From contig JBDRTG010000040.1 of assembly GCA_043824255.1 (NCBI GenBank), forward strand, positions 1-64,000: a stretch of DNA of 64,000 bases. Direction: 5' to 3'. Source of the DNA: a bacterium. Its GTDB lineage: Bacteria; JAHJDO01. Positions within the stretch are counted from its first letter, which is position 1; every line of letters begins with the position of its first letter. A program made the position numbers. Shown here piece by piece: positions 6,001-30,000 of this stretch.

Positions 6001-9000
6001 CAGGGCAAAAACCAGTTATTACAAAGGCAAAGAAGTCTATAGCAGGATTTAAACTCAGGGCCGAAATGCCAATAGGTGCTAAAGTGACTCTACGGCGGAG
6101 TAGAATGTATGAATTTCTTGATCGCTTGTTAAATATAACTCTGCCACGTATAAGGGATTTTAGAGGAGTTTCTCCGAAATCTTTTGATGTTAGAGGAAAC
6201 TATACATTGGGCATTAAGGAACAAATTATATTTCCAGAGATAGATGTTGATAAAACAGAGAAAGTCCATGGTTTAGATATTACAATTGTCACTAGTGCGA
6301 AAACTCCTGATGAAGGAAGAGAGTTGTTAGGATTGTTAGGTATGCCTTTTACTAGAGATGATACATAAGAAGGAAAAAGGGAGATGGCAAGAAAAGCGCT
6401 TATAGCAAAAGCTAAAAGAGAGCCGAAATATAAAGTGCGAAGGTACAATAGGTGTAGTTTGTGCGGAAGACAGCGGGGATATCTAAGAAAATTCGGATTA
6501 TGTAGAATATGCTTTAGAAAATTAGCTCTGAGTGGAAAACTTCCTGGAGTTATAAAAGCTAGTTGGTAATTTGGGAGGATAAAAATGCCTGTAACAGATC
6601 CAGTATCAGACATGCTTACATCCATTAGAAATGCTTATATGGTTAATAAAAGCCATTTATCTGTACCAGCCTCTATATTAAAGGTGGATGTAGTAAGTAT
6701 TCTAAAAAAAGAGGGGTTCATTCAGGATTATAAAGTTGAGGCTAATAATAGCCATAGAATTATAGAAATAGATTTGCGCTATGATAGAAATGAACCTATG
6801 GTAAGAGGTTTAGAAAGAGTAAGCAAACCAGGTCTGCGTATATATGTACCTGCTTCTAAAATCCCCAGAGTAAAGAGAGGGGCAGGAATAGCTATCTTAT
6901 CTACTTCAGAAGGCGTAATGACTGATAAAGAATGTCGTAGAAAGAAAATTGGGGGCGAGGTTATTTGTTATGCATGGTAGAGGGTTGACTAAAAAGGAGA
7001 TAAACTAACATGAAAAAACTTTCAGTATTTTTACTCATATTTTCAGTAATCTTAACCAGTGTAACTCCTGCCCATAGCTGGCCATGGTCCAGAAATCGTC
7101 GTCCACTTCCGCCAAGAACAGCAACGATTCAAGGACGAGTAACAGATTCAATAACAAATCAAGCCATATCCGGCGCAACAGTCCGGGCAGGCAGTCATAA
7201 AGCTGTTACAAATGCAAATGGAAATTATTCAATAAAGAATATTAAGGTATGGTTCTGGGGAAGGATATATAGAGTAAGAGCCGAAGCAAAAGGATATTAT
7301 ACAAGTTCCAGATGGATATATGTAAGGAAAGGAAGAACATACACATTAAACTTCAGATTGAGACCCAGAAAGCCGCTAATATTAGTCAAGATAGATTCGC
7401 CTGAAGATAATTCCTACATAAAAGGAACAAGCTTAGATGTAATAGTATCATGGCAGGGCAGAGCAGGAATAATAGATTTATATCTGGATAATAATTTAGC
7501 CGGCAGTTACAGGACATGGCGCTGGTGGCACAGGTCAGGAAATCATACATTCAAAGTAGACATTTCAGTTCAACAAGACGGAGAACACAAGCTCAAAGCA
7601 ATAGCATACAGATCGCACAGGAGACGAGGTTACAAAGCAGAATCTAAAGAGATAACATTTATTTTAGATAATAGTTTGCCTGTGATTTCAGACATCTCAC
7701 CAGTAGATAATGCTTTAATTAACAACAACCAGCCGGAGATCTCAACAGTATTGTCGGATGCAACAAGTGGGATTGATAAAGACACAATCATATTAAAAGT
7801 TGATGATGCAGAAGTAACTGCAGGTTATGATGAGGTAACAGGAAAGGTAAGTTACACACCAGAAACAGCGCTTGCTGATGGAACGCATACAATTTTAATA
7901 GAAGTGAAAGACAGGGCAAGAAACGAGGCAAGTGTTACATCAACATTTACAATAGACGCAACATCGCCAGTAATATCAAACATTCTGCCGGAAGATGGTT
8001 CGGAAACGACTGAGACAAGACCGCTAATTTCTGCCAATTATTCAGACTCTGGATCTGGAATAAATGCAACTACAGCAAAAATATTAGTAGGTAATATAAA
8101 CCAAACTTCACATGCTGTAGTCACAGAAACAGGTATTAGTTATAAGCCAGCAGAGGATTTGTTGTATGGCGTCATAGGAGTTCATATAGAGATAAAAGAC
8201 AATGCAGAAAATCTTGCCCAAGTAGATTATGAATTTACAATAAGGGACTATGTCCAGGAACTGGAAGATGGGGTTAGTGAAGGAGATTGGGATAAGATTT
8301 GTGAATCAGCAGATAAGATTATGAAAGAAGGAGGAAAGCTGGTAGATGAATTGATTGAAGCTGCAAAGGATGAAACAAAAGATATCGTGCTAAGATCAAT
8401 GTATTTAGAGATATTAGGAGAAATTGAAGATTCAAAAGCAGTAGACAGTTTAATAAACGTTGTTAAAGATGACTCTGAAGATTCGGAAATTAGAGCAAAT
8501 GCAGCCTACTCATTAGGTAAGATAGGTGATTCGAGGGCAGTTCAACCATTACTAGAAGAACTAGATAATGAGGATACAAACATACGCTCTACTATATCAT
8601 TAGCGCTTGGGTTACTAAACGCGCCTGAGGCTATAGCTCCTCTGCTTGACCAATTAAATAACAGTAAAGATCTTACAGAAAGGATAAGGGCAGGAAGCTC
8701 ATTAGCTAGTATGAAAGCTCAACAGGCGTATGATAGTTTTATAAGCATTTTAACAAGTGATGAAGATGAATCAATAAGACTGCTGTCAGCTTTGTGGTTA
8801 GGAGAACTTGGAGATATTCTAGCAGTTCCATCATTGATAAATGCGTTAAAGGATAAAAGTAGTTGTGTTGCCTGTAATGCAGCAATAGCATTGGGTATAC
8901 TAAAAGATACATCAGCAGTACAACCACTGATAGAAGCATTAGAGGATGAAGGGTTATTAAGAATAGAAGCAGCAGAAGCGCTTGCGGAAATAGGAGACCA

Positions 9001-27000: not shown

Positions 27001-30000
27001 GTGTCTTTTGCATGGGGAATCTTGGACGCCAGGATGGCCGGAAAAAGAGTGGGGGGATTATGAACCGGATTATTGGGCAAGTGCAGGTTTTTATGGACTT
27101 CTTTACCGGGTGTACAATAACTTTGTTGATTTGGTCGCGCGTAAGTTTTTCGTTAGATTTAATTTATCAGGGTGGACCCCAGAACAAGTAGAAAAAGCAT
27201 GGATGAGAGTTGTGCTTCTGGATTGGAGGGCCAACCCCGTGTATGTATATGCCGGAAGTCTAAAAAATATAACAACAGGGAAAGTGGGTACCTTGAAACT
27301 TGATGAGGATGTGCCATATGTCTATTTTTATGACATACCAGCATCGGATTTTGGAGATTGTAAAGAGTATAATCTTGGCCCCTCATTAGATTTAAGCAAT
27401 CCGAGTTTGGTAAAACCACAGAATATAGATTGGTCTGAATATCATCAGGAATATAGGAGAGGTTTAGAAACAGCACATGGATATCATGTGGCGCAGATTC
27501 TATTTATTCCAAAAACTGTGGAATAGGATTATTAAAATGATAAAAACCATTACAAAACCAAAACAAAAAGCGTTGAAGGGGATAGATGTCTCTTAACAAA
27601 CAGGAAGAAAAAATCGTAAGAAGGTTTGCTGAGAAAATAAAAGAATCACTTAATGATAATATAGTTTTTTTAGAATTATTTGGGTCTAAGGTTAGGGGCG
27701 ATTTCTCTTCTGATTCCGATATAGATATTTTATTAGTAGTCAAAAAGAAGACTCCTGAAGTGCGTGATGCGATATTTAATGTTCTTTTTGATATTGACCC
27801 GTACTATAAATTTAAGGTTTCTCCTGTTATATATTCAGAGTTTGAATATCAGAAGAACAGAGAATTGGAGTCAACATTTGTTGAGACAATCAGTAAAGAA
27901 GGCATAATGCTATGAAGAATAAAAGAGAGCTTGCTCTTTATCGGTTAAATGATAGTAAGGAAAAATTAAATGCATCAAAAATACTCTTTAAAAATGGCAG
28001 CTACAAGGATTCTGTTTCAAGGTCTTATTATGCAATGTTTACTTCAGCAAGAGCACTATTAGCTACAAAAAGTTTAGACAGCGCAAAACATTCAGGTGTA
28101 ATATCTCTTTTTAACCTGCATTTTGTAAAGGCAGGAATAGTCGGGAAAGAATATGGAAAACTATTGGCTGAAGCCAAAAATATCAGAGAAGAAAGCGATT
28201 ATGGAGATTTTGTTATAGTTTCCAAAGAAGAAGGCGGAATTCAAATTAAACATGCAGAACAATTTATTAAAGAAATAGAAAAAGCTATATAACATCATGC
28301 CAATAAAAATTATTCTTAACAAATGCACGGGTTGCAGAAAATGCATCCCTGTCTGTCCATTCTCTGCTATAGAGGTAGCAGAGAAAAAAGCTAAAATTCT
28401 GGATAATTGTACATTATGCGGAGCATGTGTGGATGCGTGCAAATTTGATGCAATAGTTTTGGACAAAGAAGAAAAAAAAATATTAACTGATGAATATAAG
28501 GGTATATTGGTTTTTGCAGAACAAAGACATGATGAACTTCAGACTGTAACACTGGAACTATTAAATGAGGCAAGGAAATTAGCAGATATATTAAAGGAAG
28601 AATTATCAGTAGTTTTGCTTGGGAATAAAGTTGATAAAATTGCCAAGGAGCTGATATCCTTTGGCGCAGACAGGGTATACTTAGCAAGTGATCCTGAATT
28701 AGAATCTTACCAAAATAGTATGTATACGAATATTTTAGTGGATGTAATTAATAAGTATAAGCCAGAGATTTTTCTTATTGGTGCAACAACAATAGGTAGG
28801 TCTTTAGCCCCAAGAGTAGCTACAAGGATTCAGACTGGTCTAACAGCAGATTGTACAGGGCTAAGTATTGACATCAATAAGAGACTGTTATTACAAACTA
28901 GACCTGCATTTGGCGGTAATATTATGGCAACAATTATATGTCCTCAGCATCGTCCTCAGATGGCAACAGTTAGACCTAAGGTTTTTAAAAAGCCAGAGAG
29001 AAATCCTGATAGAAAAGGAGAGGTAGTAAAAATAGGGTTTGAACTAAAAATCGATGATTTAGTTGCAAAGATTGTAGATACAATAGTAGTGGAATCGCAA
29101 GTAGTTGATCTACAGGAGGCGGAAATCATTGTCTCTGGTGGACGAGGATTAGGTAAAGCGGAGAATTTTGACTTAATAAAAGACCTTGCCAATAGTATTG
29201 GCGCAGCAGTGGGTGCGTCAAGAGCAACAGTTGATGCAGGATGGATTCCTTCTTATCATCAAGTAGGCCAGACAGGAAAGACAGTTCAACCTAGACTGTA
29301 TATCGCATGTGGAATATCTGGAGCAGTTCAACATTTAGTTGGCATGCGTTCATCTGATATAATTGTAGCTATTAACAAAGATCCAGACGCCCCCATATTC
29401 CAAGTTGCAACTTATGGAATTGTCGCAGATCTGTTTGATATAGTTCCAGCTCTTACTAGTAAACTAAAACAAGTTTTATCTTGAAACATAATCTAAATAA
29501 CGCACTTTTCAAAACAAGATCTCGTATACTCTTAGGATTAAAGAAAATAAAGAGTGTTTTGGGACCACATCTAGAACATGAGATTCTGGAGAAATTGGAA
29601 GAGATACTGATAACAGCTGATATTGGAGTTAGGACAACCCGTAAGATCATAAATAATTTAGAAAACTCAATACATAATACTGATAAAAATGATTTTCAGG
29701 CTATTTTGTGTACATTAGAAAGAGAATTACTAAAGGTTTTTGAAAGAAATAATCAGAGAGAAATTCTTCCACAACACCAGTTGACTGGATGTAAGATGCC
29801 TTTGAAAATTATATTAGCTGTTGGTGTAAATGGGGTTGGCAAAACAACCAGTATTGTAAAGATTGCACATAGATATAAAAAGCAGGGGAAAGAGGTTTTA
29901 CTTGTTGCAACAGATACATTTAGAGCAGCAGCAAACGAGCAGATAGAGATATTGGCTAACAGGGCAAATTTGGAACTTATAAAATCTCAATATGGAGCTG

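Follow-up and report, generated by a model that had tools for sequence, protein, structure and literature searches.

Integrase-free HGT hot spots between core genes have been described by Oliveira et al. (2017, Nat Commun, PMC5635113), who also report raised recombination in the flanking core genes. These hot spots resemble the sites analyzed here in that one core-gene interval holds different accessory genes in each genome without an integrase or transposase there, turnover is high, and homologous recombination is the proposed driver. They differ in that the present sites are spacers of 3-30 nt in tightly packed housekeeping operons, ribosomal-protein operons included, that the inserts are nearly always co-directional and promoterless, and that raised recombination of the flanks was not seen in our small test. 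Additions of small gene sets to the conserved ribosomal cluster have also been described, with duplication, transposons and transfer from close relatives debated as mechanisms. In the passages considered here, the events described lie mostly between operons and involve housekeeping genes, whereas we found 6-kb secreted-protein cassettes and toxin-antitoxin pairs inside operons (S8-L6, L11-L1 and L3-L4).

In the minimal mobile elements of Neisseria, alternative cassettes between conserved genes are exchanged by recombination without mobility genes of their own. The cassettes described below show the same flank-bound exchange, but they also reach different flanks, and natural transformation is not known in the host organism. 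Integron cassettes are likewise promoterless and co-directional, with a conserved 3' element, and their arrays recall the tail-ORF6N-tail arrangements described below. In contrast, there is no IntI here and no single platform with attI and Pc, the 3' element is unstructured antitoxin coding sequence rather than an attC hairpin, and the cassettes comprise 3-5 genes and 6-7 kb. MNT/HEPN modules (MntA/HepT-type; Pfam PF01909 with PF05168/PF01934) share with the pairs found here the overlapping nucleotidyltransferase and HEPN genes; unlike those modules, the present ones are embedded in ribosomal-protein operons, and their decayed 5' end survives as the conserved terminus of a different gene module.

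The window analyzed is a stretch of 64,000 nucleotides of contig JBDRTG010000040.1, whose forward strand gives the coordinates of cassettes A and B; cassette C lies on contig C6. The genome under study (G000), that of an uncultured bacterium with a compact genome, is a 2.02-Mb MAG, 87% complete and split over 51 contigs, and it was compared with eight relatives (G001-G008; nine genomes in all). Its three cassettes are paralogous at their ends: S8|A|L6 (7010-13092), L17|B|MNT/HEPN|etfA (20263-28292) and L11|C|L1, the last with the gene order L11, C1, C2, C3, L1. With a probability of roughly 55%, we read them as promoterless, lineage-specific surface-protein modules that are exchanged among integrase-free hot spots mainly via homologous and illegitimate recombination. 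The features of cassettes A and B are as follows.

6585..6980, + strand: rpsH (S8), host gene upstream of cassette A (Pfam Ribosomal_S8, E 4.8e-47).
6981..7009, + strand: 5' junction of cassette A (sequence), 29 nt from the S8 stop to the A1 start, with the motif TTGACTAAAA and the ribosome-binding site of the cassette; too small for a promoter.
7010..9109, + strand: A1, with signal peptide, CarboxypepD_reg, Big_13 and HEAT-repeat head (Pfam; tblastn; identity profiles, in which the first ~860 nt are conserved in all cassettes).
9096..10022, + strand: A2, PD40 (TolB-like) beta-propeller with a hydrophobic N-terminus (Pfam PD40, E 1.3e-15; NCBIfam TolB propeller, 96 bits, under the model cut-off).
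10038..11018, + strand: A3, second PD40 protein (Pfam), which G004 and G007 lack in their A-type cassettes (three-way alignment).
11038..13092, + strand: A4, secreted protein (Pfam; tblastn; alignment) with a conserved lineage-specific ~170-aa domain common to B5 and C3 and the C-terminal end I-P-K-x-x-E (IALIPKMPE; consensus ILFIPKTxE), also in B5; the C-terminus of C3 differs.
13094..13153, + strand: tail of cassette A (core 13106-13128), the 19-codon mini-ORF MIKTKPEQKALNEVKGLYV, then a REP-like element remnant; the mini-ORF stop and the L6 start overlap by 8 nt.
13146..13697, + strand: rplF (L6), host gene downstream of cassette A (Pfam; junction sequences).
19828..20181, + strand: rplQ (L17), last gene of the alpha operon (Pfam Ribosomal_L17).
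20182..20262, + strand: spacer of 81 nt holding a hairpin (about 20184-20205) as well as the ribosome-binding site of the cassette (sequences).
20263..22176, + strand: B1, with signal peptide, CarboxypepD_reg, Big_13 and LolA-like head (Pfam).
22173..25204, + strand: B2 and B4 (both PD40), B3 and the beginning of B5, together forming an internal tandem duplication of 1.5 kb with 71-82% identity, in which B3 is a 169-aa copy of the B5 N-terminus (tblastn; repeat comparison).
24722..27526, + strand: B5, with a PGAP1/lipase-like alpha/beta-hydrolase head (Pfam PGAP1, 27.7 bits; PDB lipases, E 5e-5), the 170-aa domain and the end ILFIPKTVE.
27537..27596, + strand: tail of cassette B (core 27555-27577), mini-ORF MIKTITKPKQKALKGIDVS, which shares 11 nt with the start of the intact MNT.
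27586..28292, + strand: intact MNT (27586-27915) / HEPN (27912-28292) toxin-antitoxin pair (Pfam NTP_transf_2, HEPN) of a second type, 86-93% identical to a pair that G002 carries at pilin|GT9.
28297..29484, + strand: etfA (ferredoxin domain fused to ETF-alpha), host gene downstream of B, with its native ribosome-binding region (aacatcATG) preserved (Pfam; junctions).

In the first gene of the module, the CarboxypepD_reg/Ig stalk is conserved and carries a head that varies (HEAT, LolA-like or NHL). Next come one or two PD40 propellers. The last gene couples a hydrolase head, again variable, to a conserved orphan domain, and its C-terminus bears the conserved motif ILFIPKTxE in most copies, though not in C3. 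That orphan domain occurs in just 12 proteins of a 5.8-billion-protein library. The domains suggest that the module may encode a hydrolase complex, on the cell surface or in the periplasm, built on a shared scaffold. Pfam searches confirmed the gene content and positions given in the genome-wide survey's note. The note had placed all three cassettes inside ribosomal-protein operons, which is correct for A and C, but B lies behind a hairpin after the alpha operon's last gene. Its figure of ~74% identity for the first gene was reproduced by tblastn (A1/B1 73.7% and A1/C1 74.6% over 414 aa). The 45% that it gave for PGAP1-like proteins describes B5/C3 (45.2% over 730 aa), but not A4, whose head had no PGAP1 match in Pfam and a weak NlpC/P60 hint (E 0.0013), and which shares only its C-terminal part (A4/B5 45.3% over 307 aa; A4/C3 61% over 240 aa). 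Similarly, the propellers that it called related are so in B and C (B2/B4 63.8%; C2 versus B2 and B4 31-32%), but A2 and A3 had no tblastn match to these at E<=1e-5.

We compared the insertion sites across the relatives. S8 and L6 are adjacent in 7/8 relatives, and etfA directly follows L17 in 7/8, both as the survey's note had stated. S8|L6 is occupied in G000 and in G005, where the insert is a 746-aa glycosidase-like gene with an MNT/HEPN pair; in both genomes TTGACTAAAA follows S8 and L6 starts with ATG, against GTG at the 7 empty sites. The spacer of these empty sites is 9 nt long and identical in 6/7 (G006 differs at two bases), and random deletion would not restore an identical spacer, which speaks against our reading. 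L17|etfA is occupied in G000, and G008 holds a cassette remnant there with the same spacer type. The L11 cassette, previously credited to one relative, is complete in G000 and G008 but was also found in G002, at a contig end, and G001 keeps only a tail/HEPN scar. At L3|L4, G007 holds a 32-aa remnant with MntA/HepT and G002 a cassette. Because S8|L6, L17|etfA and L11|L1 are occupied in species that are non-sister in the species tree, with matching junctions and other cargo, these are old hot spots and not the recent insertions that had been proposed.

The same cassette types occur in the closest relatives at non-ribosomal sites, namely ileS|dksA (occupied in G004 and G002), ppdK|prs (G004 and G008), fabF|acd (G007 and G005), dut|ftsK and upstream of recO; ilvE|mcsA is occupied in G002, G004 and G008. 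Many non-ribosomal cassette sites hold other small-gene inserts or are synteny breakpoints in further species, with breakpoints at the same junctions in G007 (ppdK|mcsA) and G005 (pilin|mcsA and ilvE|GT9). Ribosomal sites elsewhere hold the glycosidase-like gene, toxin-antitoxin pairs and ORF6N, and the contents of the hot spots besides cassettes comprise MNT/HEPN, MntA/HepT, a weak PIN-domain gene, ORF6N genes and REP-like elements.

That cassettes change place, as had been claimed, is evident from the A-type, which lies at S8|L6 in G000, at ileS|dksA in G004 and upstream of recO in G007. Same-type cassettes at the differing intergenic sites of these genomes share 88% aa identity, with a dS of 0.37-0.41 versus 0.14-0.46 for control genes; the dS of the relocated A-type cassettes, 0.36-0.37, lies within or near the control-gene range. 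The A-type cassettes of G004 and G007, at different loci, are 100% identical over ~2 kb amid flanks of 80-90%. This tract could be an assembly artefact if both MAGs derive from a single co-assembly. The G000 paralogues are 86-88% alike over the first 860 nt of gene 1, at least as much as same-type copies across species (85-86%), and beyond this segment copies cluster by type. These identities show that the cassettes recombine and that the first 860 nt of gene 1 have been homogenised. In agreement with the survey's note, no integrase or transposase was found within or adjoining the cassettes; terminal inverted repeats, flanking direct repeats and a regular target duplication were likewise absent from them. 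A target duplication of 31-65 nt at the dut|ftsK insert of G007, without parallel at other junctions, counts against our reading. No imported tract was found in the flanks of cassette A, where the S8 and L6 trees of G000 follow the species tree; flanking core-gene recombination, a defining sign of integrase-free hot spots, is therefore not seen here, another point against our reading.

The conserved tail is confined to the cassettes, as previously noted: its 23-nt form has exactly three copies in the genome with <=3 mismatches allowed. Across the nine genomes, a tail 20-mer occurs 19 times (9/9 genomes; reversed control 0). In cassettes A and B, the tail is 92-96% identical to the first ~45 nt of the intact MNT gene of G005, and at S8|L6 of G005 the tail sequence continues as the intact MNT/HEPN pair. 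Scars at L11|L1 in G000, G008 and G001 match the 5' end of this MNT and an internal HEPN block, joined at one identical deletion point. The conserved 3' tail is thus the beginning (~45 nt) of an MNT antitoxin gene that has decayed, left over from an MNT/HEPN pair formerly behind the cassette, and the tail of cassette B is the remnant of a first MNT gene, distinct from the intact MNT behind it. The tail is 90-100% conserved among copies with neighbouring genes of only 45% identity, for which decay alone is an insufficient explanation, a point against our reading. At 35-50 nt, it is also a very short RecA substrate, which counts in the same direction. As a mobility site the tail is not supported, being an MNT 5' remnant that is unstructured (folding worse than shuffles, z +0.2 to +1.6; no hairpin), without dyad symmetry by eye and with a truncation point that varies among copies.

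The anatomy, distribution and recombination tracts of the cassettes, like the absence of recombinase hallmarks, are direct observations; the route of recombination can be proposed as follows. The cassettes look like cargo of variable-gene hot spots in tiny spacers between co-directional housekeeping genes. Lacking their own recombinase, they would be transferred from one hot spot to another and among species within the genus. The main route may be homologous recombination via homogenised ends (the first ~860 nt of gene 1 and the MNT remnant), with new sites opened by occasional illegitimate joins and selection retaining only co-directional inserts that leave the operon intact. The survey's note had proposed a novel type of cassette mobility; what is observed instead fits integrase-free hot spots with homologous recombination, which have already been described (PMC5635113).

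A dedicated, as yet unrecognised site-specific system, in which a trans-acting recombinase inserts and precisely excises circular cassettes in operon spacers and the 24-35-nt tail is the recombination site, like integron attC, appears improbable. It would account for the conservation of the tail beyond its surroundings, for the clean empty sites and rearrangement junctions, and for an ORF6N-plus-tail unit with an identical fusion point at at least 5 places. At two G002 loci, ORF6N genes are bracketed by two tail copies as ~30-nt direct repeats, an arrangement that looks like a circle integrated at a specific site and weighs against our reading. Orphan tyrosine and serine recombinases are also present in the genome, one of which immediately precedes an ORF6N gene on C49, and by eye the tails end in GTTGAA, GTTAAG or GTTAGG, which we take to resemble the integron core GTTRRRY. 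Nevertheless, the best integron integrase score was 149 bits against a cut-off of 265, and the tail lacks hairpin and dyad and plainly represents coding sequence from the 5' end of MNT, with homology that passes the supposed crossover for variable lengths. Moreover, 5' junctions scatter from 1 to >200 nt before the gene 1 start, the fabF and recO cassettes of G007 lack most of the tail, and each genome holds just 1-5 tails. Vertical descent from a genus ancestor with cassettes everywhere, followed by differential loss without any mobility, would explain the junction details common to non-sister species at S8|L6, L17|etfA and L11|L1, flanks that follow the species tree and native codon usage. 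It is distinctly improbable, as numerous independent deletions, each exact to the base, would have had to recreate the same spacer and leave the ileS and ppdK C-termini intact, same-type cassettes at different sites show orthologue-like rather than old-paralogue-like dS, and the 2-kb tract links different loci of two species.

The survey's note held that ribosomal-protein operons are targeted for growth-rate-coupled, very high expression, so that selection sets the siting. All cassettes of G000 are at ribosomal sites (3/3), and of the roughly 16 distinct sites occupied across the genus, 4 directly follow a ribosomal-protein gene, against about 3% of junctions expected by chance by our own estimate; the observed share is inflated by a partly deliberate look at ribosomal sites. 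Propeller codon adaptation and cassette RNA in a metatranscriptome (both below) also fit this explanation, which we nonetheless regard as unlikely: ribosomal siting falls to 0/3 complete cassettes in G007, 0/2 in G004 and 0/2 in G006, where the flanks are ileS, ppdK, fabF, dut, recO or coaBC, and unrelated cargo occupies the ribosomal sites of other species. The over-representation stands, but ribosomal sites are not required and do not define the target. Under our preferred reading of hot-spot exchange, inserts would be tolerated and long-lived at ribosomal sites, and high expression may also help. False attachment of repeats to ribosomal operons during assembly or binning might be suspected from the repeated 5' cassette region, at which contigs of many relatives end, and from the incomplete, fragmented MAG, but is hardly credible. 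Independently assembled Logan contigs from a DNA run, which may be the source sample, span S8->A1, A4->L6 and L17->B1; single contigs carry L11, cassette and L1 in G008 and S8, insert and L6 in G005; and the paralogues, merely 86-88% identical, can be separated by assemblers. The arrangement is no assembly artefact.

Finally, the spacing of the cassettes bears on their expression. The 5' spacers at S8, L11, fabF, ileS, ppdK and L3 range from overlap with the upstream gene up to 34 nt, most 5' junctions leave no room for a promoter, and promoters and terminators showed no excess over shuffles. In 10/18 usable copies, the reading frame that crosses the tail terminates either in an overlap with the following start or <=4 nt away from it. 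This spacing suggests co-transcription with the host operon and a translational relay through the tail: host-operon transcripts would read through the cassettes, and the MNT-derived mini-ORF would deliver ribosomes to the essential gene that comes next. In codon adaptation, the cassette genes rank at the 56th-95th percentile of the genome and the propeller genes at the 91st-95th. A metatranscriptome contig, from an RNA library that may include carried-over DNA, matches 13009-13379 at 100% identity and spans A4, the tail and L6.

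The S10-spc-alpha ribosomal cluster lies on the + strand at the start of the window. Three paralogous blocks of secreted-protein genes are found in this genome (G000): cassette A between S8 and L6, cassette B between L17 and an MNT/HEPN pair followed by etfA, and cassette C between L11 and L1 on another contig, C6.

Features of the three cassettes and their host genes (window coordinates unless a contig is named)
6585-6980, + strand: S8, host gene 5' of cassette A
7010-9109, + strand: A1, with CarboxypepD_reg, Big_13 and HEAT domains
9096-10022, + strand: A2, PD40 protein
10038-11018, + strand: A3, PD40 protein
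11038-13092, + strand: A4, last gene of cassette A
13146-13697, + strand: L6, host gene 3' of cassette A
19828-20181, + strand: L17, host gene 5' of cassette B
20263-22176, + strand: B1, with CarboxypepD_reg, Big_13 and LolA_like domains
B2 and B4: PD40 proteins of cassette B
B3: 169-aa truncated copy of the N-terminus of the hydrolase B5
24722-27526, + strand: B5, PGAP1/lipase-like
27586-28292, + strand: MNT/HEPN pair after B5, with etfA next
1640-7123 on contig C6: cassette C, between L11 and L1

The genome-wide survey's note had described secreted-protein cassettes in or after ribosomal operons, and this arrangement proved to be real and unusual in location. All cassette proteins have, as judged by eye, a hydrophobic signal-peptide-like N-terminal segment. 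Paralogy is greatest at both ends of the cassettes, with 74-75% identity over the first 414 aa of the opening gene (A1, B1 and C1; gene 1) and 45-61% over the C-terminal part of the last gene (A4, B5 and C3), and no match was found between the propellers of cassette A and those of B or C. Inside cassette B, a tandem duplication of 1.5 kb (22188-25204; copies 71-82% identical) gave rise to the second PD40 gene and to B3.

Gene 1 consists of a fixed stalk with exchangeable heads (HEAT, LolA-like or NHL). The hydrolase heads of the last gene are also exchangeable (lipase-like or possibly NlpC/P60), and beneath them lies an orphan 170-aa domain that occurs in only 12 proteins among 5.8 billion. 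Most copies of the last gene share the C-terminus ILFIPKTxE, from which C3 and a copy of a further cassette type (D-type) in the relative G007 differ. The propellers are TolB-like; A2 did not qualify as a full TolB, scoring 96 bits against the TIGR02800 cut-off of 343 over the propeller part only, with no tol/pal neighbours. PDB sequence searches returned only weak lipase and NlpC/P60 hints, the ESM Atlas only sub-threshold leads (best 0.80), and an AlphaFold model of the C-terminal 395 aa of B5, for which the alignment had 8 sequences, was of poor quality, with a mean pLDDT of 43. On the basis of its domains, we read the module as a putative secreted or envelope hydrolase complex on a shared scaffold. 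Among GTDB genomes, relatives of gene 1 turned up in this genus alone, and the patterns used found none in JGI metagenome contigs or IMG/VR viral contigs. The module is an orphan family and, because its heads can be exchanged while the scaffold stays constant, a candidate variable surface system.

GTDB contains nine species genomes in this phylum, all of a single genus: G000 and eight relatives (G001-G008). A tree from eight conserved genes resolved them into ((G000,(G004,G007)),G002), (G005,G008) and ((G003,G006),G001). The survey's counts of seven of eight relatives with an uninterrupted S8-L6 spacer, and seven of eight with etfA directly after L17, were both confirmed. EtfA itself (28297-29484) has an N-terminal 2x[4Fe-4S] ferredoxin domain. 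In G005, the S8-L6 spacer holds a 746-aa glycosidase-like gene and an MNT/HEPN pair; G005 carries the TTGACTAAAA of G000 after S8, and its L6 starts with ATG, as opposed to GTG in all empty sites. After L17, G008 has a 73-aa cassette remnant and an ORF6N gene, with a hairpin spacer as in G000. L11 is followed by a cassette in G002 and in G008, where it is of a distinct NHL-headed type. G001 retains just the scar. The L11-L1 interval contains C-type, D-type or scar depending on the genome. Between L3 and L4, G007 has a 32-aa cassette remnant with MntA/HepT and G002 a cassette. Because these ribosomal sites are occupied in non-sister species, they are old, recurrently used spots rather than fresh insertions, which leaves the survey's proposal of recent insertion unsupported.

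Cassettes of the same types were also found at other positions in the closest relatives. G004 has an A-type cassette between ileS and dksA and a D-type cassette between ppdK and prs. In G007, an A-type cassette lies upstream of recO, a B-type cassette between fabF and an acyl-CoA dehydrogenase gene (acd), and a D-type cassette between dut and ftsK. G002 carries a B-type cassette between ilvE and mcsA, and both G002 and G008 have a C-type cassette flanked by a pilin gene and a gene for a family 9 glycosyltransferase (GT9). The gene pairs that host these non-ribosomal cassettes are 1-20 nt apart in G000. Synonymous divergence (dS) of gene 1 between same-type copies was 0.36-0.41, within the range of ten control genes (0.14-0.46); the age of same-type copies is thus close to that of the species, even though they occupy different sites. 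The A-type cassettes of G004 (C82) and G007 (C19), at different loci, are 100% identical over ~2 kb covering the end of gene 1, the propeller gene and the start of the last gene, and 80-90% identical elsewhere; this tract reflects either a recent exchange between species or, only if the MAGs were co-assembled, an artefact. The three paralogues of G000 are 86-88% alike across the opening 860 nt of gene 1, and thus at least as similar as same-type copies in G007 (85-86%); beyond this point the copies cluster by type. Together, the identical tract and the homogenised start of gene 1 point to ongoing recombination among cassettes.

Seven G000 junctions were checked in five relatives, and most were filled or rearranged in at least two species. 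Inserts comprised 3.0 kb at ileS-dksA in G002, 1.7 kb at ppdK-prs in G008 and 3.3 kb at fabF-acd in G005, as well as inserts at ilvE-mcsA in G004, G002 and G008; dut-ftsK was occupied in G007 only. The first four intervals each hold two or three distinct inserts. Like S8-L6 and L11-L1, they thus carry different accessory genes in one core interval across genomes, as do integrase-free hot spots of horizontal gene transfer. Some inserts open with small paired ORFs, candidate toxin-antitoxin genes by size and order, with other cargo following. Synteny breakpoints also fall at these junctions: in G007 (C44), only 1 nt separates ppdK from mcsA, and the joins of the pilin gene to mcsA and of ilvE to GT9 in G005 (C80 and C148) look as if two hot-spot junctions had undergone reciprocal exchange. 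A ribosomal-protein gene precedes 4 of ~16 distinct occupied sites, compared with a rough expectation of ~3% of junctions; we consider this enrichment real, but the site list came partly from a deliberate look at ribosomal sites. The identity profiles of S8, L5, L6 and L18 against 3-8 relatives, too few genomes to be informative, gave no foreign tract beside cassette A.

Two further inserts were observed. A 1.6-kb insert between an epimerase gene and recO in G004 (C93, 791-2299) breaks the co-directional rule, as its 502-aa ORF runs on the opposite strand. In G005 (C137, 4849-6230), two ORFs, first one of 192 aa and then one of 103 aa, lie between a 107-aa cassette remnant and a tail, the conserved short 3' element that ends each cassette. 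Pfam gave no match for the 192-aa and 103-aa ORFs; the former contains YDPTVGRFISKDPLG, a motif of RHS/YD-repeat toxin tips.

The pair after cassette B comprises an MNT gene (27586-27915; NTP_transf_2, E 3.4e-9) and a HEPN gene (27912-28292; E 3.1e-21) that overlap by 4 nt, and with this adjacency it classifies as an MNT/HEPN pair, a predicted toxin-antitoxin system. The tail is related to such pairs. Its 23-nt core has exactly 3 copies in the 2.02-Mb genome with up to 3 mismatches allowed, and a 20-nt version has 19 copies across all nine genomes of the genus (reversed control, 0), with only 1-5 per genome. In G005, the tail between S8 and L6 extends into an intact MNT gene (114 aa) with HEPN behind it, and the tails of A and B are 92-96% identical to the first ~45 nt of this MNT. 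The 57-codon ORF that precedes L1 on C6 matches the MNT 5' end and an internal HEPN block, and so do the corresponding ORFs of G008 and G001, with an identical deletion point. Given these matches to the G005 MNT and the scars on the L1 side, the tail is a decayed antitoxin gene. Beyond the core, the length of homology differs from copy to copy, and REP-like hairpin elements often come next. In 10 of 18 usable copies, the tail reading frame overlaps the start of the next gene or stops within 4 nt of it, with overlaps of 8 nt for L6, 11 nt for the intact MNT and 4 nt for L1. These overlaps suggest that the tail likely acts as a translational relay to the next gene.

The REP-like hairpin element, GATTGCTTCAC...CGCAATGAC, is of low copy number, with six in G000 (e.g., C8:20181 and C27:74983); it often directly follows tails in relatives, and a remnant lies at 13124-13140 in G000. 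A RAYT-like Y1 transposase (C8:18954-19454) scored 58 bits, under the cut-off of 80. ORF6N genes run 3' into the tail with an identical fusion point at G002:C130 8926-9520, G002:C71 922-1520 and on G008:C76; in G002, two tail copies ~575 nt apart flank the ORF6N genes. Contig C49 of G000 (7.4 kb in its entirety; GC low at 35.6%) encodes a tyrosine recombinase, two MNT-like/HEPN-like pairs and a small serine recombinase followed directly by an ORF6N gene. The contig could represent a plasmid or an integrative element, and the tail-side ORF6N genes may have come from it.

G000 encodes XerC, XerD, five other tyrosine recombinases, three serine recombinases, a Tn3 transposase and the RAYT-like gene, none of which is near a cassette. 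Set against integron arrays, the cassettes are co-directional with tight 5' spacers, and tail-ORF6N-tail units occur at two G002 loci, but each genome has just 1-5 tails and a single platform is absent. None of the seven tyrosine recombinases qualified as an integron integrase, the best, which scores as XerD, reaching 148.9 bits against the TIGR02249 cut-off of 265, and a truncated 249-aa protein next to the Tn3 transposase scored 138.7 bits. Single-stranded folds of three tails on both strands (-1.0 to -4.2 kcal/mol) were no better than shuffles (z +0.2 to +1.6 on 5 of 6 strands and -0.26 on one). Lacking IntI and an attC-like fold, the integron reading was rejected. A transposon or IS was rejected for want of terminal or flanking repeats: A and B have neither terminal inverted nor flanking direct repeats, the cassette ORFs contain no transposase domain, and inspection of 7 junction pairs by eye found no target duplication except at dut-ftsK in G007 (C63), where the final 31-65 nt of dut recur as a diverged direct duplication on either side of the insert. 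Empty sites shared, by eye, no target motif beyond purine-rich ribosome-binding regions.

The best fit is a set of integrase-free hot spots, in a variant that is new in lying inside essential operons. The pattern matches that described for hot spots without mobile elements in PMC5635113. The cassettes would spread through illegitimate joins screened by selection and through homologous exchange via their conserved ends; such a route fits because the 5' junctions vary by site: some lie within the final codons of ileS or ppdK, and others as far as >200 nt upstream of gene 1. The new kind of cassette mobility proposed in the survey is unsupported, as hot spots and recombination fit the pattern instead. 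However, some observations sit uneasily with hot spots: empty sites are very clean, G002 has tail-ORF6N-tail units, the tail is strongly conserved, and the flanks of cassette A contain no imported tract. A site-specific recombination system acting on the cassettes is kept as a minority rival. In its boldest form, which we consider improbable, the cassettes would be "operon riders", a lineage-specific class of promoterless multi-gene elements that spread among the few-nt spacers of essential operons via a short 3' site derived from an antitoxin start and an unrecognised trans-acting enzyme, the site doubling as a translational relay that keeps L6 and L1 expressed. If true, it would explain why empty sites are clean, why tail-gene-tail arrays occur and why the tail is so unusually conserved.

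The 5' junction before gene 1 is at most 34 nt at S8, L11, fabF, ileS, ppdK and L3, with some overlapping the upstream gene, and is therefore too short to accommodate a promoter. The fifteen essential genes that lie downstream of cassette A need a transcript. Promoter and terminator scans, with a consensus that may not suit this phylum, gave no excess over shuffles, and no + strand terminator was detected at cassette ends. In a metatranscriptome from the same study, contigs were 100% identical within cassettes, and one RNA-library contig (13009-13379) spans A4, the tail and L6; both may reflect DNA carry-over. Parts of the cassettes had low or no cover in two RNA runs, where contig depths cannot rank genes and gaps prove nothing. 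Codon usage of the cassettes is native and above the genome median.

Few gene orders in bacteria are as conserved as those of ribosomal-protein operons. An uncultured genus, the sole one of its GTDB phylum, tolerates 6-7-kb secreted-protein blocks and toxin-antitoxin pairs at S8-L6, L11-L1 and L3-L4, and paper searches on ribosomal operon insertions, on toxin-antitoxin or HEPN genes with ribosomal genes, and on Omnitrophota with PD40 yielded no such arrangement. A compact, co-directional genome acquires accessory genes through recurrent hot spots within operons, which makes it a natural setting for testing how much extra length essential operons withstand before downstream expression fails. 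The puzzling conserved tail finds its explanation in a decayed antitoxin gene that may serve translational coupling.

Two long ORFs were also observed. One of 1482 aa in the window (30722-35170) combines a Peptidase_M28 domain (~residues 240-308) with an FtsX-like permease C-terminus (1210-1319). On C6 (9265-17127), rpoB and rpoC form a single 2620-aa ORF, with Rpb2 at residues 33-1244 followed by Rpb1 at 1274-2537. Fusions of rpoB and rpoC are known from Helicobacter and Wolbachia, and the G008 orthologue also continues beyond 1031 aa.
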